NCBI GenBank assembly: GCA_937893795.1
Contig: CALCTH010000409.1
Coordinates: 1 to 61,330 of the forward strand
Length of the DNA: 61,330 nt
Direction: 5' to 3'
From: an uncultured Myxococcales bacterium
GTDB lineage: Bacteria; Myxococcota_A; Polyangia; Polyangiales; Houyiibacteriaceae
The notes below the pieces were generated by a model. It made no database searches. It saw nothing but the letters and a program-made list of their open reading frames with translations, and was not told the origin of the DNA. This document shows, in pieces, positions 1 through 52,568 of this stretch. The first letter of the stretch is position 1. The number at the start of each line of letters is the position of its first letter. Both the position numbers and the translations under genes were made by a program.

Positions 1-276
1 CTTCGCGATCTGCCGCTCCGCGAGCTCCAGCGCCGCGTCGGCGCTGGCGCGCCGCCGATTCTGCGCCTCGGCGCTCTCGTCGGCGCGCCCCCCGTCGAGG
101 GCTCGCCGGGCCTGCCGGAGCGCCCCCGCAGCCAGCTCTCGCTCCGGTGCCTCCGAGGCCTGCGCGTAGCGTGCCTCGAGCGCCCGCGGGTCCAGGGGCT
201 GGGCGCGCGCGAAGAGCCCCGCCGCGAGGGCCAGGACGAGGGCGAGGGCCGCGGTTCCGCGGGGCAGCGGGGGCAT
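1..276 (-). CDS. Secreted protein, N-terminal fragment (gene runs off the window start)
   Basis: Reverse-strand ATG at 276 is followed by an open frame to position 1. My translation is MPPLPRGTAALALVLALAAGLFARAQPLDPRALEARYAQ..., a signal-peptide-like N-terminus with an ARA-Q cleavage site. It is absent from the ORF track, probably because no stop lies in the window. Confidence 0.45.
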   Translation of the reverse strand, partial: MPPLPRGTAALALVLALAAGLFARAQPLDPRALEARYAQASEAPERELAAGALRQARRALDGGRADESAEAQNRRRASADAALELAERQIAK

Positions 277-445
277 GCGGGGAGGACCCCAGCACAGGAG
301 CGAGTCGCGGTCCACGGGATGCTCCAGGGAACGCCCGGCGCGGGCTGTCTCCTTCCGGCTGGCGTTCGCCGCAGCCCGCACCTAGCACACGACCACCGCG
401 CGCTCGGCGTAATGCACGCCCGTATGCGGAGACCCCCCTCGGCTC

Positions 446-1570
446 ATGCTTCGTATCGACGACGCCCTGACTCCCCTGGACCCGCTCGTGCTCGACGCCC
501 CGGGCGGCTTCGCCTGGTGGTACGTCGAGCTCCTCGACGAGACGCTCACCGGCCTCGTGCTCATCGCGGCCTGGGGCCTCCCCTTCCTGCCCGGCTACGC
601 GAGCGCGGCGCGGCGCGGCGTGGGGCAAGCGCCCCGCTCCCGACCCAGCCTGAACCTGGCCATCTACGAGAAGGGCGAGCTCACGGGCTACCTCCTCCAC
701 GAAGTCGAGCCGCGCTGCGCCTCGTTCTCGGGCGAAGGCACCTGGACGCTGGGCGAGAGCGCGATGCGTACGGTGGATCGGGACGGCCGCCGGCACGTCG
801 AGATCGACCTCGACGCGCCCCTCGTCGCCCACGGCGGCGGCCGGCTCCGCGGCACCATCCGCTTCGCGGGTCCGCTCGTGCGGCGCGCGGAGGCCGGTGC
901 GGGCGACCTCGGCGGCGCCGACAACCACGCCTGGACGCCGCTCGTCGCGCCCTGCCGAGGCGCCGCGCATCTCGACATCGCCGGGCGTCCGCTCGTGCTC
1001 AGCGGCGACGTCTACCACGACCGCAACGCGAGCGATCAGCCGCTCCACGACCTGGGCTTCGGCCGCTGGGTCTGGGGCCACGTCGCCCTGCCGGACCGGC
1101 ACCGCATCTTCTATGTGCTCTGGCCCAAGGGCGCGCGCGGAGCCGACGCGGAGGTCGGCGGCTACGAGGTGAGCGCCGCCGGCGAGCTCCGGGCGGTGGA
1201 GGGGCTGCGCGCCGACTTCCACGGCGGGGGGAGCACCTTCTTCGGCATGCCCGCCTGGCGCGGCGTGACGCTGCACGCGCCCGGCGAGGAGCGACCCTGG
1301 TTCGACGCCCCGCTCACCACGCGCGTGGACGACGGCTTCTTCTACCTACGCTACCTCTTCGAAGCGAAGGCGAGCGGTCGCCGCGCCCCCGGCAGCCTCG
1401 AGATCATCGACCCGGAGCGCGTCGACCTCGGGCGCCACCGGCGCTTCGTGCGCATGCGGGTCTCGAGCGACCTCGCCACGCCCTCGCCCTGGCTCCCGCT
1501 CTTCACCGGCGATCTCCGCAGCAAGTGGTCCCGGCTCGGTCGGGGCCTCTTGAACGGGTCCGCGCGGTGA
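446..1570 (+). CDS. crtC: Carotenoid 1,2-hydratase / hydroxyneurosporene synthase family (CrtC-like)
   Basis: 374-aa ORF. The N-terminal 'GGFAWWYVELLDE...GLVLIAAWGLPFLPGY' resembles the CrtC family signature as I recall it. Its stop overlaps the start of the downstream desaturase (GTGA at 1567-1570). Confidence 0.7.
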   Translation: MLRIDDALTPLDPLVLDAPGGFAWWYVELLDETLTGLVLIAAWGLPFLPGYASAARRGVGQAPRSRPSLNLAIYEKGELTGYLLHEVEPRCASFSGEGTWTLGESAMRTVDRDGRRHVEIDLDAPLVAHGGGRLRGTIRFAGPLVRRAEAGAGDLGGADNHAWTPLVAPCRGAAHLDIAGRPLVLSGDVYHDRNASDQPLHDLGFGRWVWGHVALPDRHRIFYVLWPKGARGADAEVGGYEVSAAGELRAVEGLRADFHGGGSTFFGMPAWRGVTLHAPGEERPWFDAPLTTRVDDGFFYLRYLFEAKASGRRAPGSLEIIDPERVDLGRHRRFVRMRVSSDLATPSPWLPLFTGDLRSKWSRLGRGLLNGSAR

Positions 1571-3057
1571 GCACCGACGTCCTCGTCATCGGTGGCGGCG
1601 TCGGGGGCCTCGCCGCGGCGGTGGTTCTCGCCGGCCGGGGCAAGCGCGTGCATCTCCTCGAGGCCGGCGATGCCCTCGGCGGCAAGCTCGGCACGGCCTC
1701 GCACGACGGCGTCGTCTTCGACACCGGCCCGAGCATCCTCACCGTCCCGGAGGCGTTCCGCCGGGTCTTCGCGGCGGCGGACGTCCGCCTCGAAGACGCG
1801 CTCACGCTGCGCCGCCTGGACCCGAGCTTCCGCTACCGCTTCCCGGGGGGACCGGTGGTGGACTTCCACGACTCCCTCGAGGGGACGCTGGCGAGCGTGC
1901 GGGACACGCTCGGCGCGCAGGCCGCCGACGAGCTTCGTGCCTTTGCCGCGCATGCCGAGGCTCTCTGGGACCGGACGGCGCCCGTCTTCGTCTTCGGTCC
2001 GGCGCCCGCGCCCGACGTGCTCCGGCGCATGCCGCCCTCCCAGCTCCTCGACGTTTTCCGCATCGACGCGACCCGCACCATGTGGCGGGCCATCGAGGAC
2101 CGCGTGAAGACGCCGGAGCTGCGCGCGATCCTCCAGCGCTACGCGACGTACAACGGCTCCGACGCGCGCCGGGCCCCGGGCACGCTCAACTGCATCGCGC
2201 ACGTGGAGCTCGGCCTCGGCGGCTATGGCGTCGAGGGCGGCATGGCGCGTCTGGTGGAGGCGCTGGCGAAGGTGGCGCGCGACCGGGGGGCGGTTCTCGA
2301 GACGAACGCGCGGGTGACCCGGGTGATGACGCGCGGCCGCCGCCTCGGCATCGCCCGCGAGGTCACGGGCGTGGAGCTCGCCGATGGTCGCCGCCTCGAA
2401 GCACGCGCCGTGGTGAGCAACGCGGAGACGCGGCACCTCTTCGACGCGCTCCTCCCCAAGCCGCCTCGGGAGGCGCGCCGGCGCCGCGGCGAGCCTTCCA
2501 CCTCGGGTTGGAACGCCATCGTGAGGGCGGCTCCCACGGAGGCTCGCGCCGCGCACAACGTGCTCTTCCCGGCGCGCTACCGCGGCGAGTTCGAGGACCT
2601 CTTCGACCGGGGCCAGCCGCCCGCGGAGCCCACGGTCTACGCCTGTGACCAACGCCTCGCGCACGGCCGGACGGGCTGGCCGGACGGGCGGGCGCCGCTC
2701 TTCCTGATGGTGAACGCGCCGGCCGTCGAGCACACGCGCGGCGCCATCGACTGGCCCGCCCTACGCGACAAGGCGCTGCGGCGCGCGCGCGACGTGGGGC
2801 TGGTCGGGGAGAACGACGAGGTCGTTTGGGAGCGGCGTCCCGAGGACCTCGCGCGCCGCTTCCCCGGCTCGAGCGGCAGCCTCTACGGGAGCTCCAGCTC
2901 GCATCCCCTGAGCGCGTTTCTCCGGCCGCCGAATCGCATCGCATCCGTACCGGGGCTCTACGTGGCGAGCGGCACGGCGCACCCCGGCGGCGGCGTCCCG
3001 CTCTGCGCCATGAGCGGCTACCAGGCCGCACAGGCCGTCCTGGCCGACGCGCGCTAG
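1567..3057 (+). CDS. crtD: FAD-dependent carotenoid desaturase, phytoene-desaturase family (CrtD/CrtI-like)
   Basis: This is the C-terminal 496 codons of the 912-aa ORF 319..3057. It has the Rossmann motif 'DVLVIGGGVGGLAAAVVLAGRGKRVHLLEAGDALGGK' and the C-terminal 'GLYVASGTAHPGGGVPLCAMSG' typical of CrtI-type desaturases. The start is set at in-frame GTG 1567. The upstream part of the ORF is Arg/Pro-rich junk overlapping crtC. Confidence 0.7.
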   Translation: MSTDVLVIGGGVGGLAAAVVLAGRGKRVHLLEAGDALGGKLGTASHDGVVFDTGPSILTVPEAFRRVFAAADVRLEDALTLRRLDPSFRYRFPGGPVVDFHDSLEGTLASVRDTLGAQAADELRAFAAHAEALWDRTAPVFVFGPAPAPDVLRRMPPSQLLDVFRIDATRTMWRAIEDRVKTPELRAILQRYATYNGSDARRAPGTLNCIAHVELGLGGYGVEGGMARLVEALAKVARDRGAVLETNARVTRVMTRGRRLGIAREVTGVELADGRRLEARAVVSNAETRHLFDALLPKPPREARRRRGEPSTSGWNAIVRAAPTEARAAHNVLFPARYRGEFEDLFDRGQPPAEPTVYACDQRLAHGRTGWPDGRAPLFLMVNAPAVEHTRGAIDWPALRDKALRRARDVGLVGENDEVVWERRPEDLARRFPGSSGSLYGSSSSHPLSAFLRPPNRIASVPGLYVASGTAHPGGGVPLCAMSGYQAAQAVLADAR

Positions 3058-5129: not shown

Positions 5130-5138
5130 CCTGCGGGC

Positions 5139-5828
5139 GTGCAGCCTGCGCGGCGGGTCCCGGCGCCGGCGCCGACCCGTAGTATCAAGGGCGACGTGCC
5201 CGCGCAGATCGAGTTCTTCTTCGACCTCTCCTCACCCTGGACCTGCCTCGCCTTCCACAACCTGCGGCCCATGATGCGGGAGCGCGGGGTCGCGATCCGC
5301 TGGCGTCCTTTCCTCGTCGGGGGCGTGCACAACGCGGTGAACCGCGCCTATCCGGAGGCGCGGCAGACGCAGCTCTCGTCGCCCAAGTGGCGCCAGTTCG
5401 CCCGCTCCCTCTACGACTGGGCCGCCCTCGCCGGGGTGACGATGAGCTTCCCGGGGCCGCATTTTCCGCTGCGCTCGGTCCACGCGATGCGCTTCTGCTG
5501 CCTCCTCGAGGACGATCCGCCCGCCCTCGAGCGCTTCGCCGAGGCGGGCTTCGAGGCCTACTACACGCGGCAGGAGAACCTCGACGATCCGGCCGTGCTC
5601 GTGGCCGTGGCCGACGCCGCGGGCTTCGACGGCGAGGCGCTCCGCGCCCGCTCGACGGAGCAGCCCACGAAGGACCACCTTCGAGCCAACACGGACGAGG
5701 CCATCGCCCGCGGCGCCTTCGGCTCGCCGAGCATCTTCGTGCCCTTCGAAGGCGGCGAGCGCCTCTACTTCGGTAACGACCAGCTGCCCCTCGTCGCCTG
5801 GGCGCTGGACCGCGGCCGCGGCGGCTGA
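5139..5828 (+). CDS. 2-hydroxychromene-2-carboxylate isomerase-like DsbA/thioredoxin-fold protein
   Basis: 'IEFFFDLSSPWTCLAFHNL...RWRPFLVGGV...FGSPSIFV' fits the HCCA-isomerase/DsbA-like family pattern. The start is uncertain: GTG 5139 or GTG 5196. Confidence 0.65.
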   Translation: MQPARRVPAPAPTRSIKGDVPAQIEFFFDLSSPWTCLAFHNLRPMMRERGVAIRWRPFLVGGVHNAVNRAYPEARQTQLSSPKWRQFARSLYDWAALAGVTMSFPGPHFPLRSVHAMRFCCLLEDDPPALERFAEAGFEAYYTRQENLDDPAVLVAVADAAGFDGEALRARSTEQPTKDHLRANTDEAIARGAFGSPSIFVPFEGGERLYFGNDQLPLVAWALDRGRGG

Positions 5829-6130
5829 GCCCGCGTGGGGACGCTCGCGGTGCGCGCCGGAGACGCGGCCATCGACAACAGCTTCGACGCCATGGCGGCC
5901 CGGACCGGCGGCACCGTGCTCGTCGCGGCCGAGCCGAGGCCACGACGCAGGCGGCCGTCGCGCTTCTGCGCCCAGAGCGGACCAGCTCCATCGTGCACTG
6001 CGCGGCCCCGGTCGACGGTCCGCCTAGGCGACGCGTCATGGTCCGCATCGGTGACGTGCCGGCAGAGACGACCTACGACGTGCCGGTCGCTCCCCACGCC
6101 GCCGCGGCTCATCGGGTCCCCGGCAGCTCC

Positions 6131-8377
<2,247 letters not shown>

Positions 8378-43458: not shown

Positions 43459-43970
43459 TGCGCGAGGTCGACGAGCCGGCAGTGGTGCACGAGGTGGTGA
43501 TCGAGGCCCCCATCGATCGGGTGTGGGCCGAGGTCACGAAGACCCACGAGGTGCAGAAGGCCATGTTCGACATGCGCATGGACGCGCGCCTCGAGGTCGG
43601 GGCGCCCTTTCGGATGCGCAGCCGCGACGGCAAGTACACGGGCGTGGTGGGCGAGATCCTGGAGGTGGACCCGCCGCACCGGCTCGCCTTCACCTTCAAG
43701 TTCACGCTGCACGATGACCCCGCGTGCCGCGTGACCTACGAGCTCGAAGAAGCGGAGGGCGGGACGCGTTTCCGGATGACCTCCGACCGGCTCCCGCTCG
43801 GCACCAAGACCGCCAAGCAGATGACCCAGGGCGGGCAGCTCATCGTCGACACGCTCAAAGCGGTCTGCGAGACGGGCCGGCCGTCCTTCAAGGTGCGGAC
43901 GCTCTACGCCATCTTCGCTCTGACGGCGCCCTTCACGCCGAAGCGCTGTCTGTCGACGAACTGGCCCTGA
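43455..43970 (+). CDS. SRPBCC/AHSA1 (Aha1-like) ligand-binding fold protein
   Basis: 'VVIEAPIDRVWAEVT...G..FRMRSRDGKY.GVVGEILEVDPPHRLAFTF' is a typical AHSA1/SRPBCC pattern. The start overlaps the ArsR stop. The ArsR + SRPBCC pairing is common. Confidence 0.75.
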   Translation: MMREVDEPAVVHEVVIEAPIDRVWAEVTKTHEVQKAMFDMRMDARLEVGAPFRMRSRDGKYTGVVGEILEVDPPHRLAFTFKFTLHDDPACRVTYELEEAEGGTRFRMTSDRLPLGTKTAKQMTQGGQLIVDTLKAVCETGRPSFKVRTLYAIFALTAPFTPKRCLSTNWP

Positions 43971-44008
43971 ATGGGGACGTTTGCCCTCGGGGCCGCTATC
44001 CTCGGGTC

Positions 44009-45400
44009 GTGCCAACCCTCGAGGAGGTCGACGCGCTGCGGGGCGAGGACCGTGCGGCCGCGCTCCGCGCGTACGCGGACGTCCAGGAGCAGATCGGCAC
44101 CGAGGATCGCGAGCGCATCCTCTGGATCGCGGACCAGTCGGCGCCGGGGCCACCCGCGGAGCTCGACCCGCTCTTCGAGCGTGTGCTCGCCCGGGCAGGT
44201 GACCCCGAGCTGATCCGCGCCGCGCACCACGCGCGGGCGCTCATCGCCTGGTTCGAGGGCCGCGCCGAGGCGGCGGAGGCCGGCTGGGCTGCGGCCATGC
44301 AGCTGACGGCCTCGGGTCGCGACCGCTCGTGGATTCGCTCCTGTTTGAACCTCGGCATGGCGCTCCTGGCCCGCGGTTGCCTCTTCGAGCCGGTCGTGCT
44401 CACGGGCATGGGCGCCCGGGCGGCGGCGAGGGCGAAGCAGCCCTACCTCGAGGCCTACGCGGCCTTCGTGCGCGCGGCGCTGCTCCTGGGCATCGACGAC
44501 CTGCCGCGCGCCGAAAGCGAGGCAGCCCGGGCGCGGCTCGCCGCGGCGAAGGTGGACGACCCCGGCGAGCTCCGCGTCCTCGAGTACCTGCGCTTCGACC
44601 TCGGCGTCGGACAGCTCCGCGCTCGCCGCGAGCTCCGAGCGGCCCTGGCGGAGCTCGAGCGCCAGCGCGCGTGGCTCGACGCCTATGGCGAGGCGGAGCC
44701 CGTGGTGCTCGCCGAGGTCGAGGGCCGGCAGCTCGCGGTCCGCTACGAGCTCGAGCCCGAGTCACGGGCGGCGATCGTCGATACGCTTCAGCGGCTCCCC
44801 GAGACCTACGCGCTCGGGCCGGCGTGGGCCGGAGACGGGCGTCGTGACGCCTGGGCGCTGGCCATCCGCCATGCGGTGGAGAGCGGCGACGCCTGCGCCG
44901 CGGGGCGCGAGGCGCGAGCCCTGATGGACGACCTTCGCTCCGAGGCGAGAGCGTCCCGGCGTGTGCGGCGCGCCATGGGCCTCGGCCAGCTCTTGGCCGG
45001 CCTCGGTCCCCAGGCCGACGAGCTCGCGCACGAGGCGCTCGCGCTCGCCTCGGAGGCCTGTCTCGCGCGCATTCAGGCCGCCGAACGTGCGACGCACGAC
45101 ATCCCCGCGCTCGCCGAGGCGACGCCGGACGACTGGCAGATCCTCGCCGACTTCCGTCGCCGGCTCCGGGATGAGCAGGCCGCCGTGCTCGCCACGGTGG
45201 CCGAGGTGCTTCAGCCCGGCGCGCCGGCCTTCGAGCTCCTGGTGCGCGACGACATGATCTGCATCTGCGCGTGGTGCTCGCGCGTGCGCACGGCATCGGA
45301 TGCGTGGCTGCCCGTCGCCCACTTCGTCCCGGCGACGGGCGCCATCGCGGTCACGCACGGCATGTGCGAGGCCTGCATGGAGACCCACTTCGCGAAGTGA
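44009..45400 (+). CDS. Helical-repeat (TPR-like) protein with a C-terminal CxxC...HGxCxxC module
   Basis: This is the in-frame tail of ORF 43724..45400. The start is uncertain (GTG 44009 is the first plausible start after the SRPBCC stop). The C-terminus reads 'ICICAWCSRVRTASDAWLPVAHFVPATGAIAVTHGMCEACMETHF'. Confidence 0.5.
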   Translation: MPTLEEVDALRGEDRAAALRAYADVQEQIGTEDRERILWIADQSAPGPPAELDPLFERVLARAGDPELIRAAHHARALIAWFEGRAEAAEAGWAAAMQLTASGRDRSWIRSCLNLGMALLARGCLFEPVVLTGMGARAAARAKQPYLEAYAAFVRAALLLGIDDLPRAESEAARARLAAAKVDDPGELRVLEYLRFDLGVGQLRARRELRAALAELERQRAWLDAYGEAEPVVLAEVEGRQLAVRYELEPESRAAIVDTLQRLPETYALGPAWAGDGRRDAWALAIRHAVESGDACAAGREARALMDDLRSEARASRRVRRAMGLGQLLAGLGPQADELAHEALALASEACLARIQAAERATHDIPALAEATPDDWQILADFRRRLRDEQAAVLATVAEVLQPGAPAFELLVRDDMICICAWCSRVRTASDAWLPVAHFVPATGAIAVTHGMCEACMETHFAK

Positions 45401-45416
45401 TGGCGGGTCTCCGCCA
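45401..45416. terminator. Short hairpin (TGGCGG-GTCT-CCGCCA) filling the 18-nt gap between convergent stops
   Basis: Read directly. 6-bp stem, 4-nt loop, no U-tract. Confidence 0.35.
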
Positions 45417-45418
45417 GC

Positions 45419-45961
45419 TCAGCTGGCCTTCTTGTACTGCTCGGCCTTGAACTCGATCTTCACGGCGTTGCCGTCGAGGCTCACCTCGACCTCTTCGCCG
45501 TAGTACTGGCCGATGCCCTTCGCGAGGCCGGGCATGAGTGCCACGAGGCCGCGCGACGAGTCGTAGTTCATGACCAGGCGCGCCGGGTCCGAGTCGTCGT
45601 AGGTGAAGCGCGGCGGGCGCGCGTTCGCCATCGTCGACGTGATGGTGACGTGGATGCCGTCGAGGCTGAGCAGGAACTCCCGCGCGTTCGACGCCTTCTG
45701 GAAGTAGGAGTCGTAGATGGACGGCGCGTAGGTCGTCGACCAGTGGATGCCGAAGGCCTCCATGGCGGCCTCGGCGCTGATGCCGAGCACCTCGGCCGTC
45801 GTGCCGATCATCTTGACGGCGTCGCCGTCCGGGACGTCCTCGGAGGACGCGAACTCACGGTCGGCGTCGTGGCCGGCCTTCGTGAGGATCTCCTCCCACT
45901 TCTCGTCGCCGTGGTTGTCGCGTACCAGCTCTTCGAGGCAACGGACGATCGTACCCTTCAT
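45419..45961 (-). CDS. Stand-alone H-NOX (haem-nitric oxide/oxygen binding) domain protein
   Basis: The start is trimmed to ATG 45961 (180 aa). 'MKGTIV' N-terminus, proximal His in '[10 protein letters not shown]' (H104), 'ARPPRF', and the Y-x-S-x-R clamp 'YDSSR' (Y133/S135/R137). It aligns nearly gaplessly with the Tt H-NOX sequence as I remember it. Confidence 0.8.
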
Positions 45962-46142
45962 GTCGTGCTCACCCTTCTCCCCGGCGGGTTGTTCGACGCC
46001 GCGGTGGGCAGGCGAAACGTCTAGGGCGCGGAAGCCTGAATCCCCGCGAGGAAACGACGGCCGGGCGTCCGAAGGGGCATTCATCGGAGGCCCCAGCCGT
46101 CGTTCCAGCCACCCGGGGGCGGGTGCTTGGGAAAGGGTCACC

Positions 46143-47618
46143 GTGAGCGAGGCAAACGTCAGCGCAGAAGGCACTGCACCGAACGGGCAGAGCGACCATC
46201 ATGAGGATCGGCGCGTGGCCGAGCTCGAGGCCCGCGTGGCCGAGCTCGAGACCCGCGCCCTCGACGCCGAGTGGGAGCACGGGCTTCTCCGGGCGCAGAT
46301 TCGGGGCTCGCACGTGCCCATGGCGCGCTTTGGTGAGGACCGCCATTTCCTCGAGGCCAACCCTGGCTTCGAAGCCCTCGTCGAGCGGCTCGAGCTGCTC
46401 CCCGCGGGCGCAGAGCTCGTCGGCCAGAGCGCCGCGATTCTGAACGGCGCGACGCACGACTGGCCGGCCGTTCTGGGGGACCACGCTCAGCTGCCGGCCA
46501 AGGCCACGCTCGTCTTCGGGACGTCGACGCTCGAGGCGGTGTGGGACGCCATCCGCTGCAAGCGCGGCAACGTCGTCGGCTACCAGTGCGGCTGTGAAGC
46601 CGTCTCGCAGCGCGTGCATCTCGAGGCCGAGCGCATGGCCCAGCGCGAGCGTGACCGCGACAAGCAGAAGAAGGACCAGCGCCGGGCGCGCGCCATTCGC
46701 CGCGCGGTCGAGGCCGCGCGAAAGGGCGACCTCACCGTGGAGGTCCCCGTGAAGGGCGAGGACGTGCTCGCTGAGCTGGCGAAGGACGTGGGCGGGCTCG
46801 TCGAGGACTTCCGCGCGTCGGTGATGCAGATCGGCGAAGGCTCCAAGAGCCTGGCCGCCCAGAGCGGTGAGCTCTCGTCGGTGAGCACGAATCTCGCCTC
46901 GAACGCCTCGGCGACCACCGAGCAGGCCGTCGTGGTCAGCGCGTCGGCGGACCAGGTGTCCAGCTCGGTACAGACCGTCGCCGCGGGCATCGAAGAGATG
47001 AGCGCGTCGGTGAAGGAGATCGCGAAGAACGCTCAAGACGCCGCCTCCGTGGCGACGGAGGGCGTCGAGGTCGCGCGCTCCACCAACGCGGCCGTGGCCA
47101 AGCTCGGGGAGAGCTCCGCCGAGATCGGCAAGGTGGTGAAGGTGATCACCTCCATCGCCCAGCAGACGAATCTCCTCGCGCTCACCGCGACCATCGAGGC
47201 CGCGCGCGCCGGAGCGGCGGGCAAGGGCTTCGCCGTCGTCGCCTCCGAGGACAAGGAGCTGGCCAAGGAGACGGCCAAGGCGACCGAGGACATCTCACAG
47301 AAGATCGAGGCGATTCAGGGCGACACGACGAGCGCCGTCGACGCCATCGATCGCATCAGCCGCATCATCGGTCAGGTGAACGAGATCCAGGGCACCATCG
47401 CCATGTCCGTCGACGAGCAGCGCTCCACGACGAACGAGATCAGCCGCTCGCTGAACGAAGCCGTCACGAGCACGCGCGACATCGCCGACAACATCAGCGG
47501 CGTGGCCGAGGCCGCGCGCGGCACGAAGGACGGCGCCGGCAAGACGCGCTCCACGGCCGAGAGCTTCGCGGACCTCGCGCAGGAGCTCGACACGCTCATC
47601 GCGCGCTTCACCGTGTGA
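46143..47618 (+). CDS. Soluble methyl-accepting chemotaxis protein (no TM segments; coiled coil + PAS-like N-terminus)
   Basis: GTG 46143 is the first plausible start after the divergent H-NOX gene (alternative ATG about 46320). The MA domain has the tip '[37 protein letters not shown]'. No hydrophobic helix occurs anywhere in the protein. Confidence 0.85.
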
Positions 47619-47630
47619 GGCCGCCGAGCC

Positions 47631-50231
47631 TCAGCGGCTGATCATCACGCGCTCGAGCGTCACGCGGTCGATGGCCTGAATGCCCGTGGGGTTCCGGTTC
47701 ACGACCAGAGCCACGTCCCCGCCGGGGAGCATGGCCACGTCGAAGGGCGTCGTGACGATCGGGCCGCGACCGATGGTGTCGCCGGCCACCACGCGGCGAA
47801 CCCGGGTCTCCCGGTCGACGGCCACGACGCCCTGGCGTGCCGCGAGCCAGATCTCGTTCGCGTCGGCGTCGAGGCCTTGGAAGCTGCCGAGGCGCGTGCC
47901 ACCTCCGTCGCTCACGTCCACGCGGTCACCGTCGTCCGGGGCCACGGTAAGCGCCGACTGGGCGTCGCCGAGGACCACCTCGGTGCCCGACCAGGCGAGG
48001 CCTCCGGGTAGGAAGCCGAAGGGAAGCGGCCCCTCGCCGCGGCTCGCGGTGCTGCCGTCATCGAGGCGTCCGGCCGCCACGTCCCACACCCGGACGATGG
48101 AGGGTCGGTGCGCGATTATGAGGCGCCGTCCGACGGTGTCCACGTCGATGCCGACGTGCGCGAAGACGGTGACCACGGGGGGTGGAATGTCGATGCGTCC
48201 GATGTCGCCACCGGGCGTGTCCGGGTCCAGCACCGCCACCTGCCCGCCGAGGTCGCGCACGTAGAGCTCGCCGCCGACGGGGTCGTAGGCGAGGCCCACG
48301 GGCTCGCCGAGCTCCTCGGACCGGCTGATCTCCCGGCGATCCCCGTTGGCGAGGTCGACCTCGAAGACGGCGTCGAGCGCGTCGTCCGCGCCGAAGAGCC
48401 GGTCGCCGCCGAGGGCGAGGGCGGTCGGCGCCTCGAAGGCGGGGCCGTCGCCGAAGCTCGCCAGGAAGACGGGGATCGCCTCGCCGCCCGTCCGCGGCTG
48501 CCGCCAGATGGTCTCGGTCACGGTCGTACCGATGAAGACGAGCTCGCCCGCCGCCTCGTCGATGTCGAAGGCGCGGATGAAGCCGAACTCCAGGCCAACC
48601 TCCAGGCGGGTCCGGTCGCCCGTCACGAGGTCGACGACCACCCCGGTGCTGCCGCCGCCCTCGGCGACGACGAGCTCGTTCGCGGACACGTCCCCGCTCA
48701 GGGACAGGGGGGAGCCCAGCGCGGGTGCCGTGCCGCGGGAAGAGGCGCACAGCGGGTCGAAGACGCCGGTGGGGGGGTCCAGGGTACGAAGGGAGCGTGT
48801 CGTGAAGTCGTAGAAGACGAGAAGGGCCTGCGTCGGGTCCCAGGTGAAGAGGCCGATGTTGACGAGGCCCTCGACCACGGTGCGGTCGCCCGTGATCAGG
48901 TCGACGGCCAACATGCGCTGGCTGAACCCGTTGAAGGTCCCGATGAAGGCGGTGCGTTCTCCGTCGAGCGCGATGCGTCGGATGCCCGAGATGGGCGGCC
49001 CCGAGCCGCGCGTGGGACCGCTGATCTCCTCGCGCACGCCGGTCGTGGGGTCGACGCGGATCAGCTGGCCCCCGCGGAGCGAGCCGATGAGCAGGGCGTC
49101 CTCGTCGGCCTCCCAGGCGAGGGCGAAGGGCTCGAAGACGCGTGGCCCCGGCCCGCTCGGCAGCGCGCGCGTGCGCCCCGTGGCGAGGTCGACGACCTGC
49201 ACGATGCCGCTCGTGCTGTCGGCGACGAAGGCCACGTCGTCCACCGGGTCGACGACGATGTCCGAGGCGGTGAGGCTCGGGATCGTGGTGCGGCGGACCT
49301 CCACGGAGGGGCCCGTCGTAAGCGCCCCGTCGATGGTCTCAGCCACCGCCTCGAGGCGCGTGGTCTCGCCGTCGGGGCCCAGCGGCACGAGCGCCGACCA
49401 GGTGGCGAAGCCGTCGTCGCTCGTCGCCTCCACGCCCGCCACGCGCACCGCGACGACGTCGTCCGGGCTCTCCGTGGTGCCGCGCACCGTCAGCGTCGGC
49501 TCGTTGGTCTGCGAGCTCGGCGGCGGGAACACGATGGCGAGGTTCACCTCGCCCGGGTTCCGGTAGCTCAGCCCTTCGCTGCACTCGCTGACGTTGCCGG
49601 CCAGGTCCGTGGCGCGCGCGCTCACGGTGGACGTCACGTCCGGGGGCAGCTCGACCTCGATGCGGAAGGTGCCGTCGGCCTCGGCGACGCCTTCGGCCAG
49701 CGGCTCCTCGCAGTCCTCGCCGAGGAAGATCGTGATGCGCGCGCCGGCTTCGGTCGCTCCGAGCACGTCGGGCCGCGGCTCCTCGGCCGGTGACACCGGG
49801 TCGGTCCCCGTGAGCTGGGGCGGGTCCGGCGCCGTGCTGTCCTCCACGTAGGTGGCGGAGGTCGTGCTGCAGGGGCTCGCGTCCTCCCCGGGGAGCGTGG
49901 CGCGCGCCCAGAAGGTCGTCGTGGAGTCGTCGGGGACGCCGACGGGGATCTCGAGCTCGCCGCTCTCCGACACCCCGGTCCCGACGGGGTCGTCACTGCA
50001 ATCCGGAGCGCGATGAATCGTGACCGTGGCCGCCGGCTCGGCCCGAACCAGCACGAGCGGGAGGTTCTCGTTCGCTGGGCTCTCGGGCCGCGTCCCTTCG
50101 ACGGTGGGCTCGGGCGTGACGCCCACCCCACCGTCCGCGATGGGTCCGACGTCACCGCCGGCAATCACCACCCGCTGACACCCGGCGGCGAACATCGCCA
50201 CCAGGACCCCGGCTACCGCCGCGTTCCGCAT
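47631..50231 (-). CDS. Large lipoprotein: N-terminal Ig-like modules followed by a beta-propeller-like region
   Basis: Lipobox 'MFAAGCQ'. Repeated about 95-aa modules ('ATVTIHRAPDCSDDPVG...GELEIPV', 'ARITIFLGEDCEEPLAE...GTFRIEVEL'). The long C-terminal region has recurring 'D..TG.R' / 'G..P.G(L/I)A.D' strand patterns reminiscent of NHL/YVTN propellers. The domain call is tentative. Confidence 0.65.
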   Translation of the reverse strand: MRNAAVAGVLVAMFAAGCQRVVIAGGDVGPIADGGVGVTPEPTVEGTRPESPANENLPLVLVRAEPAATVTIHRAPDCSDDPVGTGVSESGELEIPVGVPDDSTTTFWARATLPGEDASPCSTTSATYVEDSTAPDPPQLTGTDPVSPAEEPRPDVLGATEAGARITIFLGEDCEEPLAEGVAEADGTFRIEVELPPDVTSTVSARATDLAGNVSECSEGLSYRNPGEVNLAIVFPPPSSQTNEPTLTVRGTTESPDDVVAVRVAGVEATSDDGFATWSALVPLGPDGETTRLEAVAETIDGALTTGPSVEVRRTTIPSLTASDIVVDPVDDVAFVADSTSGIVQVVDLATGRTRALPSGPGPRVFEPFALAWEADEDALLIGSLRGGQLIRVDPTTGVREEISGPTRGSGPPISGIRRIALDGERTAFIGTFNGFSQRMLAVDLITGDRTVVEGLVNIGLFTWDPTQALLVFYDFTTRSLRTLDPPTGVFDPLCASSRGTAPALGSPLSLSGDVSANELVVAEGGGSTGVVVDLVTGDRTRLEVGLEFGFIRAFDIDEAAGELVFIGTTVTETIWRQPRTGGEAIPVFLASFGDGPAFEAPTALALGGDRLFGADDALDAVFEVDLANGDRREISRSEELGEPVGLAYDPVGGELYVRDLGGQVAVLDPDTPGGDIGRIDIPPPVVTVFAHVGIDVDTVGRRLIIAHRPSIVRVWDVAAGRLDDGSTASRGEGPLPFGFLPGGLAWSGTEVVLGDAQSALTVAPDDGDRVDVSDGGGTRLGSFQGLDADANEIWLAARQGVVAVDRETRVRRVVAGDTIGRGPIVTTPFDVAMLPGGDVALVVNRNPTGIQAIDRVTLERVMISR

Positions 50232-50296: not shown

Positions 50297-52345
50297 CTAC
50301 TCGGCGGGCGCGACGGTGACGCGGATGATGTTGCCGGTGGCCGGGTACGCCCAGACGCCGTCCGGGACCTGGCGCACGAGGCCGTTGCCTTCCGCCTCGC
50401 CCATGTTCGGGCCGCCCTGGCCGCCCGGTCCACCGAAGAAGGGCGGGCGCGCCTGCATGGAGCCGGCGGCACCGGCCTGGTTCTGCTCCGTGCCCGCGTC
50501 CCATACGGCGAGCGCGCCAGCGATGTCGGCGTTGATGTCCTCGACGGAGCGCAGGCTGCCCTCGTCGTCGAGGAGCGCGATGCCGTCGCGGCCAAACGCG
50601 AGGAAGAGGTCGTTCGAGGGAATGACCATCGTCGCGAGGCTCAGGAAGCGGCCCTCCATGGTCGGGATCACCGAGAAGGTGTAGCCGTCGCCGGGCTCCG
50701 CCGGACCGGGGCCCTCGGCGGTGTTCGGGACGGCTTCCACGCCGGCCTGGTCGACGGCCGCCGCGCCCTCGAGCTCGGCGACGATCGTGTCGACGGAGCC
50801 GTCCTCGGCGAGCGCCTGGAGGCCGGCCGAGGCGGGCATGCCCGGCGTGAAGAAGTCGATGGCGTCGCTGTGGAGCGCCCAGGCGACGGGCGTGAGGCCG
50901 GGGAAGCCCTCGCCGTTCGACTGCACGCGGATGACGTAGGCGCCCTCGATGTCCTCGACGGTGACGCTGAGCAGACCGGACGTCGCGAGGTCCGCGAGGG
51001 CGTTCGTGGTGCCCGTGGTGCGGTCGTAGAGACGCACCACGCCGCCCTCGTCGGCGCCCGTGTTGGGCGTGCCCTGCCGCGGCGCCTGGTTCGGACCCAC
51101 GCCGGGGATCTCGTCGACCTCGGTGCCGGCGTCGTAGATGCGTAGCAGCGACATCACGTCGGCCTGCACGTCTGCAGCGGCGCGCGGCATGCCGGCGTCG
51201 TCGAGGAGCGCGATGCCGGCGGGCGGCGTCGACCAGAAGGCGTCGTTCGTCTGCACGACCATGGCCGCGAAGCTGATGAGCGGCGCGGCGGCGGTGGGCG
51301 TGACGTCGAAGGAGAGCGAGTCGCCGCCCATGACGGGCCCGCCGGCGCTCGCCGCGTTCGCGCTCACGCCTTCCACCGCGTCGAGCTCGGCGGCCCAGGC
51401 CGCGCCGCCGCCATCCTCGGCGAGGATCTCGAGCCCTGGGGAGGCGGCCGCGTCGAGCGCGAAGAACTGCACGGCGTCGCCGTGGAGCGCGTAGACGATG
51501 TCGGCGAAGGGCGTCAGCAACGTGCCCGAGGTCGGGGCCGTGTTGGTGACCTCGAAGGTGTAGGTGCCGCCGGCCTCGGTGACCTCGACGCCGACGAAGG
51601 CCGCGGGCGTGGGAAGGGCATGCGTCGGGGCCGCGTGCGGGCGAACGACGCCCTCGGCGCCACCGACGTCCATGCCGCTCTGCCGCGGCGCCTGGTTGGG
51701 GCCGGAGCCCGGGGCCTCGTTCGCCTCGGAGCCGACGTCCCAGAGCGAGACGAGGTCCGTCACGTCACGCGCGGGGAGCGCGTTCCCGTCGCCGTCGAAG
51801 AGGGGGATGCCGGCCTCGTCCGGCGAGAGGAAGACGTCGTTCGACTGCACGAACATCGTCGCGAAATGCAGCGCGTCACCGGCCTCGGCCTCGACGGTGG
51901 CCTCGTAGAAGCTGCCCGGGAACGCGGGGCCCGCCTCACCGCCGTTGTCCGGCATGGAGAAGACCACCGCGCCCTCGATGGCGGCGCCGAGCGCGCCAGC
52001 GCTGCCGTCCTCGGCAATGGCGACGAGTCCCTCGCCGCGGTCGACCGCGTCCACGGTGAAGAGCGGCGCGGCTTCGTCGGTGGCCAGGACCACTCCCGGA
52101 GAGACGGGGCCCGGGATCGGCCCCGCGCCGGAGACGTTCTCGATGCGGAGTACGAAGCGCGTCGGCCCGCCCGGGTCCATGTCCTCCGGCAGGTCGGGCT
52201 CCATGTCCGGCATGGCGTCGCCCATGTCCATCGCCATGTCGGGGTCGGTCGTGCCGGTGCCGCCGTCGTCGTCACCGCATCCGCCGAGGACCAGTCCGCT
52301 CAACGCTCCTGCGATGAGCAACCGCTTACGCCATACGTTCGTCAT
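50297..52345 (-). CDS. Lipoprotein with three tandem spondin_N-like modules
   Basis: The start is trimmed to ATG 52345 ('MTNVWRKRLLIAGALSGLVLGGCGDDDGG'). There are three modules of about 190 aa. Each has 'GEGLVAIAEDGS / SPGLEILAEDGG / SAGLQALAEDGS', then 'FATMFVQSNDVF / FAAMVVQTNDAF / LATMVIPSNDLF', then 'WD(V/A)G(S/T)E' motifs. It is a paralogue of 14121..15449. Confidence 0.65.
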   Translation of the reverse strand: MTNVWRKRLLIAGALSGLVLGGCGDDDGGTGTTDPDMAMDMGDAMPDMEPDLPEDMDPGGPTRFVLRIENVSGAGPIPGPVSPGVVLATDEAAPLFTVDAVDRGEGLVAIAEDGSAGALGAAIEGAVVFSMPDNGGEAGPAFPGSFYEATVEAEAGDALHFATMFVQSNDVFLSPDEAGIPLFDGDGNALPARDVTDLVSLWDVGSEANEAPGSGPNQAPRQSGMDVGGAEGVVRPHAAPTHALPTPAAFVGVEVTEAGGTYTFEVTNTAPTSGTLLTPFADIVYALHGDAVQFFALDAAASPGLEILAEDGGGAAWAAELDAVEGVSANAASAGGPVMGGDSLSFDVTPTAAAPLISFAAMVVQTNDAFWSTPPAGIALLDDAGMPRAAADVQADVMSLLRIYDAGTEVDEIPGVGPNQAPRQGTPNTGADEGGVVRLYDRTTGTTNALADLATSGLLSVTVEDIEGAYVIRVQSNGEGFPGLTPVAWALHSDAIDFFTPGMPASAGLQALAEDGSVDTIVAELEGAAAVDQAGVEAVPNTAEGPGPAEPGDGYTFSVIPTMEGRFLSLATMVIPSNDLFLAFGRDGIALLDDEGSLRSVEDINADIAGALAVWDAGTEQNQAGAAGSMQARPPFFGGPGGQGGPNMGEAEGNGLVRQVPDGVWAYPATGNIIRVTVAPAE

Positions 52346-52568
52346 GTGCTCTCTCCCCGTAGCTAAGTGCGTCGCCAACGAGGCGACGGAGGGCTGCGCC
52401 CAATGGGGGAAGCTATGCGGCGTGATCGCGAGCGTTACGTCGGCTCGAACGCTTTTTCTCGTTCGTTCAAACGAAAAGAATGAGCCATTGCCGTGCCCTC
52501 AACGGCTCGAAGTGGCGCGACCATCGACCCGAGTTTCCACTGCCGCGGCGCACCGAACGTTCTCATGC

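Follow-up and report, generated by a model that had tools for sequence, protein, structure and literature searches.

According to reviews from 2021, 2022 and 2025, bacterial H-NOX gas sensors fall into two classes only. The first consists of O2-binding H-NOX domains that have a distal tyrosine and are fused to a membrane methyl-accepting chemotaxis protein (MCP) in strict anaerobes, and the second of nitric oxide (NO)-sensing stand-alone H-NOX proteins that regulate a histidine kinase (HK) or an enzyme of cyclic di-GMP metabolism, either a diguanylate cyclase (DGC) or a phosphodiesterase (PDE). Here we describe a locus in which a stand-alone H-NOX gene lies beside, and is divergent from, the gene for a soluble MCP. 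It is found in a stretch of 61,330 nucleotides, hereafter the window, from an uncultured Myxococcales bacterium (GenBank assembly GCA_937893795.1, contig CALCTH010000409.1). We suggest, with a probability of about 0.6, that the two genes encode a two-protein cytoplasmic gas chemoreceptor, which would work by direct contact between the sensor and the receptor and would deliver its output through the latter.

In having an H-NOX wired to an MCP, the locus is like Tt H-NOX/Tar4 of Caldanaerobacter subterraneus (1U4H) and the H-NOX-MCP fusions of other anaerobes, and the fold, the proximal histidine, the conserved proline and the YxSxR motif are common to both. However, Tt H-NOX/Tar4 is a single membrane-bound polypeptide with the O2-stabilising residues Trp9/Asn74/Tyr140, whereas here two soluble proteins are encoded on opposite strands, and the corresponding residues are Leu9/Trp74/Leu142. 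Closest by sequence and structure are Alr2278 of Nostoc sp. PCC 7120 and the beta1 subunit of soluble guanylate cyclase (sGC), which have Trp74 and a non-polar pocket in common with the window protein. The H-NOX of sGC is fused to PAS, coiled-coil and cyclase segments, while the effector in the window is a separate MCP with a similar layout of coiled coil, PAS and helices; the parallel between the H-NOX/PAS/coiled-coil layout of sGC and its counterpart in the window is suggestive. Shewanella HnoX-HnoK, Vibrio H-NOX-HqsK/HahK and Legionella Hnox1 resemble the window H-NOX in standing alone, in lacking the distal tyrosine and in lying beside a signalling protein that is presumed to be bound directly. 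Unlike in those HK-, DGC- or PDE-paired systems, the neighbour here is an MCP, and the sequence similarity to the Shewanella/Vibrio type is far weaker (E=1e-5 to 1e-4). Finally, Aer2 of Pseudomonas aeruginosa and Vibrio cholerae and HemAT are, like the window MCP, cytoplasmic receptors connected to gas sensing through haem (predicted in our case), and the PAS and HAMP-like region of the window MCP matches the PAS-HAMP of Aer2. Their haem domain (PAS or globin), however, is located within the receptor, whereas the H-NOX is on a separate protein. Sensors and transducers encoded as separate, adjacent proteins are found in the haloarchaeal sensory rhodopsins and their Htr transducers, which signal by protein-protein contact. 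These are membrane-embedded and sense light, as opposed to soluble proteins and a gas, and with sensors that are not homologous this is an analogy only.

Together with about nine related lineages, the locus suggests that H-NOX can be wired in a third way, with a stand-alone protein of predicted NO or carbon monoxide (CO) type genetically coupled to a soluble and often sensor-less MCP. Among the papers searched, which took in few from subscription journals and not the original HNOB paper of 2003, we found none on stand-alone H-NOX paired with an MCP, and an earlier passing mention is possible. An earlier note on this DNA, made from its letters alone, had called such wiring uncharacterised, and had named HKs and cyclic di-GMP enzymes as the known partners and anaerobe fusions as the known MCP combinations; the literature agrees on both counts. 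If the coupling is physical, this would be a cytoplasmic chemoreceptor with its sensor as a separate protein. It would also offer a simple system for the transfer of an H-NOX signal to a HAMP/coiled-coil module, the same question as in sGC activation, and would add Che-type behaviour, in uncultured lineages with Myxococcota and Planctomycetota labels, to the outputs of NO/CO sensing.

An H-NOX protein of Nostoc type and a soluble MCP

The 180-residue minus-strand reading frame starting MKGTIV, which the earlier note had assigned to H-NOX, matches the Pfam profile HNOB (PF07700) with E=2.6e-41 and 141.7 bits (cut-off 25.5) over profile positions 1-162 of 163. In a sequence search of the PDB the best match was Nostoc Alr2278 H-NOX (E=1e-19), followed by sGC beta1 (~4e-14) and Tt H-NOX (3e-12); H-NOX proteins of Shewanella and Kordia type gave E=1e-5 to 1e-4 only. 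The AlphaFold2 model (mean predicted local distance difference test score, pLDDT, 91.6) is likewise closer to Nostoc H-NOX (TM-score 0.86-0.87, root-mean-square deviation 2.0-2.4 A) than to Tt H-NOX (0.77-0.81). By every sequence and structure criterion applied, the window protein is a bona fide member of the family. Its nearest solved relatives are of the Nostoc/sGC beta1 type, and not Tt H-NOX, which the earlier note had given as the closest template.

Residues were mapped on a Tt H-NOX sequence identical to PDB 1U4H, in an alignment that included Nostoc H-NOX and family members. His104 is the counterpart of Tt His102 and Nostoc His105, Pro116/117 occupies the position of the conserved proline of H-NOX, and Tyr133/Ser135/Arg137 corresponds to the propionate clamp of Tt (Tyr131/Ser133/Arg135). 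These haem-site residues, which the earlier note had recognised from their motifs, are invariant across 36 homologues (His104, Pro116, Pro117, Tyr133, Ser135 and Arg137), as is Trp74, which the window H-NOX has in common with Nostoc H-NOX. The predicted replacement of the distal residues Trp9/Asn74/Tyr140 of Tt by Leu9/Trp74/Leu142 was confirmed, and the distal pocket is non-polar; no tyrosine is present at the position of Tt Tyr140 among the clade sequences displayed residue by residue. A non-polar distal pocket is known to exclude O2 from H-NOX proteins and to favour NO or CO, and both Nostoc H-NOX and sGC beta1 bind NO and CO, not O2. Because its pocket is of this kind, the window H-NOX should bind NO or CO and form no stable complex with O2.

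Across the divergent region, the 491-residue MCP without transmembrane helix that had been described from the sequence was found as such. It matches MCPsignal (PF00015) with E=6.7e-30 at residues 295-458, and its highest 19-residue Kyte-Doolittle mean is 1.11, with no transmembrane helix detected; the H-NOX protein lacks one as well. Its N-terminus had been described as coiled-coil/PAS-like, and structure prediction upheld this: the AlphaFold2 model of residues 1-245 (pLDDT 82.7) shows a helix at 19-55, a PAS-type order of strands and helices at 60-153 and two long helices at 155-193 and 208-244, and Foldseek matched it to PAS domains, including the Aer2 PAS-HAMP structures 3vol and 4hi4 (TMt 0.67-0.72). 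No PAS domain was detected in the window MCP by a Pfam search, while by BLASTP residues 49-235 match the PAS-MCP P0125 with E=7e-15. The window PAS is shortened in its helical segment: where the related PAS-MCPs have the conserved motif FHxxPxHQR, four residues are missing at HQR, and in a comparison with the family consensus the rest of the segment likewise has no match to this motif. Residues 181-217 gave a weak match to Pfam HAMP (E=0.005-0.008, below cut-off), and a motif in this HAMP-like region, A-[IV]-E-x(3,4)-G-[DS]-L, is common to the window MCP and the partner MCPs of L002, L003, L005, L093 and L094, described below. The protein therefore has an Aer2-like layout, that is, a cytoplasmic PAS fold followed by HAMP-like helices and then by the signalling domain.

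Orthologues of the MCP are found in loci L001 and L088, where they are 78-79% identical and also divergent next to H-NOX. Pairwise ratios of nonsynonymous to synonymous substitution (dN/dS) among the three orthologous pairs (window, L001, L088) are 0.08-0.19 for H-NOX and 0.20-0.25 for the MCP, so that purifying selection acts on both genes.

Fusions to PAS, GAF, Bac_globin and Globin domains are widespread in the family of the MCP signalling module, a family that thus commonly serves to sense gases or redox state in the cytoplasm. In P0119, P0121, P0122, P0127 and many other proteins the module is fused to PAS and to Bac_globin (truncated-haemoglobin type, PF01152). These fusions are soluble, have 700-860 residues and, where a source is named, are labelled Myxococcota, Planctomycetota, Luteitalea or Eisenbacteria; a few MCP fusions carry Globin (PF00042) in place of Bac_globin. 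No H-NOX was found near the PAS-MCP P0117.

Recurrence of the pairing and its sensor-less receptors

A profile built on the H-NOX clade was run against genomes, one for each species, and gave 80 loci; a further 70 came from Joint Genome Institute (JGI) metagenomes, and single proteins were looked up in addition. The MCP was searched for in all loci by tblastn, and the H-NOX proteins were placed in neighbour-joining trees. Within the subclade of the window H-NOX, an MCP is the immediate neighbour in 9 of 10 lineages, in three different gene orders. It is divergent in the window, in L088 (H-NOX 94% identical) and in L001 (88%), all of them Myxococcota-type contigs. In L002, L003, L093 and L089/L090 (H-NOX 53-66% identical) it lies directly upstream on the same strand, with gaps of 40-140 bp, and in L005/L094 and L091 (56-58%) directly downstream, again on the same strand. 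The H-NOX-MCP pair is intact in L088 even though a different gene follows the MCP there (the 866-residue gene of the window is absent). By our own uncomputed estimate, no more than a few per cent of loci should adjoin any one gene family by chance. The pairing, for which the earlier note had proposed a synteny check, is more than chance, and since the adjacency is retained through three gene orders, a functional link between H-NOX and MCP is indicated.

Adjacency to chemotaxis genes is also seen in sister and more distant lineages. Four distant members of the clade (L035, L062, L064 and L070, from Melioribacteraceae, Spirochaetes, Clostridia and Anaerolineales) have a same-strand MCP neighbour belonging to other MCP classes. 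In the sister lineage L084, the H-NOX gene (58% identical, 1876-2418, plus strand) is divergent from a cheY-cheW operon (193-1383, minus strand). The N-terminus of the L084 gene that follows cheY-cheW (..GVGLWDMSVIAGDPVNP) resembles, judged by eye, those of PAS-MCPs.

The 80 genome loci have 139 immediate neighbours between them. Prismane/CO dehydrogenase (10 loci) and MCPsignal (7) are the most frequent Pfam families, followed by sigma-54 activators and response regulators at 4 loci each; the 25 most frequent families include neither HATPase_c nor GGDEF/EAL. The possibility raised in the earlier note, that a kinase or GGDEF gene is always found next to the nearest H-NOX homologues, did not hold: the neighbours of the nearest relatives without an MCP are unrelated genes, including OmpA, an AMP-binding enzyme, TatD, TetR/SnoaL and peroxiredoxin.

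The MCPs paired with H-NOX outside the window, L001 and L088 are small. Five complete ones (L002, L003, L005/L094, L089 and L093) have 342-378 residues, and in those of L002, L003, L005 and L089 Pfam detected no sensor domain; apart from the signalling domain it gave a faint HAMP match at most. The receptors of L093 (342 residues) and L094 (348 residues) have the same size and short N-terminus as these four. In L002, L003, L005, L093 and L094 the N-terminal stretch can be aligned to the HAMP-like region of the window MCP, and little else precedes the signalling domain. A sensor-less receptor encoded beside a stand-alone sensor provides the strongest argument that H-NOX acts as a sensor on a separate polypeptide. 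Relative to these partners, the coiled coil and PAS of the MCPs of the window, L001 and L088 are extra.

Proposed mechanism and alternative explanations

In the two-protein chemoreceptor that we propose, H-NOX would hold haem b with His104 and with the propionate clamp Tyr133-Ser135-Arg137, and its non-polar pocket would take NO or CO. Ligand binding would cause a conformational change, as in other H-NOX proteins, and this would be passed to the adjacent soluble MCP by direct, non-covalent contact. The likeliest site of contact is the HAMP-like N-terminal module of the MCP, because the partner receptors of L002, L003, L005, L093 and L094 have little else in common upstream of the signalling domain; in the window genome, the degenerate PAS that adjoins it may contribute as well. 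The target of the MCP would be a CheA-type kinase, encoded at another place in the genome, whose activity it would modulate.

Several observations weigh against this explanation. The signalling domain of the MCPs of the window, L001 and L088 groups with Myxococcota PAS/GAF-MCPs and not with the sensor-less partners, so that the partner MCPs are not simple orthologues. We considered whether they form one orthologous group co-inherited with H-NOX and rejected this, as it is not supported by the distances between signalling domains; the MCP partner may have been exchanged or remodelled in the window lineage. L007/L085-87, inside the subclade, have no MCP in view (the L007 contig ends at H-NOX; TatD is found upstream and, in L085-87, glutaredoxin downstream), and the neighbouring clades, from Acidobacteriota, Polyangiales and peat metagenomes, have no adjacent MCP. 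No CheA, CheW, CheY, CheR or CheB was detected within 8 kb on either side of the pair or, across the 61-kb window, among the 25 of 49 Pfam families listed. The H-NOX tree is a neighbour-joining tree that carries no support values, and all sources are metagenome-assembled genomes (MAGs) or metagenome contigs. Moreover, the hairpin tip of the window MCP, mostly canonical in its remainder, carries three replacements: Asn to Thr348 (47184-47186), Asn to Ser368 (47244-47246) and Val to Asp370 (47250-47252). They are unique to the window: Asn/Asn/Val is present throughout the other 119 close homologues, the two orthologues among them. Since five nucleotide changes are needed, these are not single-base sequencing errors. 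The usual glutamate of the tip is also replaced, by alanine in the window and by alanine or serine across the three orthologues. In Tsr and Tar the hairpin tip is the site of trimer-of-dimers formation and of the contacts with CheA and CheW. Array formation or kinase control may thus be altered or impaired in the window genome, and we favour neither adaptation nor decay as the origin of these changes.

An alternative sees the pair as a remnant that is decaying or has been re-purposed: the tip changes would stop normal trimer-of-dimers, CheA or CheW contacts in the window genome, and only the ancestral pair would have signalled through a Che array. The replacements unique among 120 homologues, together with the loss of the tip glutamate, speak for such a history. 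Yet the MCP reading frame is intact and its dN/dS is not near 1, the H-NOX is strongly constrained, and the change of glutamate to alanine or serine occurs in all three orthologues and in 12 of the 120 homologues, which indicates that this change alone is tolerated. We regard a remnant as clearly improbable. A somewhat better case, although still a rather unlikely one, can be made for co-regulated neighbours that do not touch, with H-NOX signalling via a distant HK or cyclic di-GMP enzyme and the MCP sensing something else through its own PAS domain. Every experimentally characterised partner of a stand-alone H-NOX is indeed an HK or a DGC/PDE, the window MCP does possess a PAS of its own, and the window holds one PAS_3/HATPase_c kinase. 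That kinase, however, lies outside the ~8 kb neighbourhood of the pair, where we found no histidine kinase or GGDEF gene, and such genes are not recurrent beside the H-NOX of the clade. Non-touching neighbours would also leave the adjacency kept across three gene orders and the Pfam sensor-less partners of four related lineages (with two more alike in size and N-terminus) to be accounted for, and the PAS that would do the sensing in the window is without the FHxxPxHQR segment of its PAS-MCP relatives.

It is also conceivable that H-NOX is not a signalling sensor, being either a handler of gas or haem (buffering or scavenging NO/CO) or a haem-free thiol redox sensor, so that its adjacency to the MCP is incidental. 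Many members of the clade do lie beside metabolic genes (cooS/cooF, TatD, glutaredoxin, peroxiredoxin), Cys8 is nearly invariant in the homologues, and haem-free redox sensing has a precedent in the literature in Vibrio cholerae H-NOX. We nevertheless consider these roles very improbable: the full set of haem-binding residues is invariant, there is one conserved cysteine only and not the 3-Cys zinc site of the described redox mechanism, and adjacency to MCPs and to cheY-cheW recurs in rearranged form, which speaks for signalling.

Locus layout and other contexts of the clade

The coordinates of the pair are given in Table 1. Each of the two genes is convergent with its outer neighbour, so that they form an isolated divergent pair. 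A public gene call starts the MCP 24 codons later, which would give 467 residues and a spacer of 253 bp; the upstream GTG start is plausible because residues 1-24 are conserved in both orthologues (L001 and L088). The orthologous spacers measure 150 bp in L001 and 163 bp in L088, and an alignment of the three revealed short conserved blocks only, with no clear operator found. In a scan of positions 45300-47800, which is uninformative at the G+C content of the window (~72%), no sigma-70 consensus promoter was found and terminator-like matches were at chance level. Rfam and tRNA scans of the whole 61-kb window gave zero matches.

Table 1. Features of the H-NOX and MCP genes in the window (positions on the forward strand)
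Feature	Position	Strand	Basis or remark
Stand-alone H-NOX gene, 180 aa	45419..45961	-	ATG 45961, stop 45419; protein starts MKGTIV
His104 codon of the H-NOX gene	45650-45652	-	
Tyr133-x-Ser135-x-Arg137 of the H-NOX gene	45551-45565	-	
Divergent intergenic spacer between the H-NOX and MCP genes, 181 bp	45962..46142	.	
Soluble MCP gene, 491 aa	46143..47618	+	start GTG 46143; MCPsignal match
Long helix at the MCP N-terminus (residues 19-55), a predicted coiled coil	46197..46307	+	AlphaFold2 model
MCP PAS-fold domain, residues 60-153	46320..46601	+	AlphaFold2 model, Foldseek, BLASTP
MCP HAMP-like two-helix module, residues 155-244	46605..46874	+	weak Pfam HAMP, AlphaFold2 model
MCP signalling domain, residues 295-458	47025..47516	+	Pfam PF00015
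MCP hairpin tip with three lineage-specific replacements	47160..47279	+	comparison with the 120 closest homologues

Beyond the subclade with MCP partners, the context of H-NOX changes. At 14 loci in the distant half of the clade (H-NOX 40-45% identical), a gene of the Prismane/CO dehydrogenase family lies within two genes of H-NOX (L054:6764-8806, L041:1701-3599, L045:2086-4044, L061:3108-5270 and L077:3741-5732, and further L038, L048-L051, L053, L059, L068 and L078). When checked with the NCBIfam model for CooS, the catalytic subunit of anaerobic CO dehydrogenase (TIGR01702), 5 of 6 tested proteins scored above the cut-off, and in L041, L053 and L059 a CooF-like Fe-S gene is located between H-NOX and cooS. 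The sources of the cooS-linked H-NOX genes are Methanoperedens, Nitrospirota and Thermodesulfovibrionales. No mention of H-NOX together with CooS was found in the papers searched. Because members of the clade adjoin cooS and cooF, CO is a live candidate ligand. More speculatively, the whole clade could represent a portable sensor of CO (or CO/NO) that has been plugged into different outputs, namely the cooS/cooF neighbourhood in anaerobes and a sensor-less soluble MCP in MAGs labelled Myxococcota or Planctomycetota, where it would give CO-taxis. We judge this generalisation unlikely as it stands; if true, CO-taxis via a two-protein cytoplasmic receptor would be a mode of gas sensing undescribed for H-NOX.

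Other contexts were seen in single groups. In cable-bacteria MAGs (Candidatus Electrothrix; L044, L046 and L066), H-NOX has an NtrC-type sigma-54 response regulator on one side and a relative of methylenetetrahydrofolate reductase on the other (in L046, 4479-5870 and 6546-8096), a conserved context unlike the MCP and cooS ones. At L023:5974-7413 (plus strand), in a Candidatus Sulfotelmatobacter MAG, the H-NOX reading frame runs without a stop into an extension of ~300 residues ending in a hemerythrin domain (PF01814, E=2e-14), which would be an H-NOX-hemerythrin fusion unless it is an assembly artefact. In L010, another Myxococcota MAG, an H-NOX gene (6001-6468; 73% identity across residues 1-129) has a frameshift past residue ~96. 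A FliP/SctR-family gene (5135-5890), with no obvious flagellar cluster around it, is located 110 bp upstream of this H-NOX gene, and the contig ends just after the latter. A link between H-NOX and flagella through this locus was rejected, given that the other upstream reading frames tested gave LpxR or nothing and that the H-NOX is frameshifted.

As for the surroundings of the pair in the window, the gene beyond H-NOX (43724-45400, plus strand) encodes a protein of 558 residues with zero Pfam matches. It is syntenic in L001 (78% identity), and its cysteine-rich C-terminal motif (ICICAWCSRVR...THGMCEACMETHF) looks like a zinc-ribbon tail. Beyond the MCP, an 866-residue Big_6 protein is encoded at 47631-50231 (minus strand). 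It is followed at 50297-52378 (minus strand) by a 693-residue predicted lipoprotein with a match to Spondin_N (PF06468) and internal repeats of the Spondin_N region, which is conserved in L001 and L088 with 88% identity.

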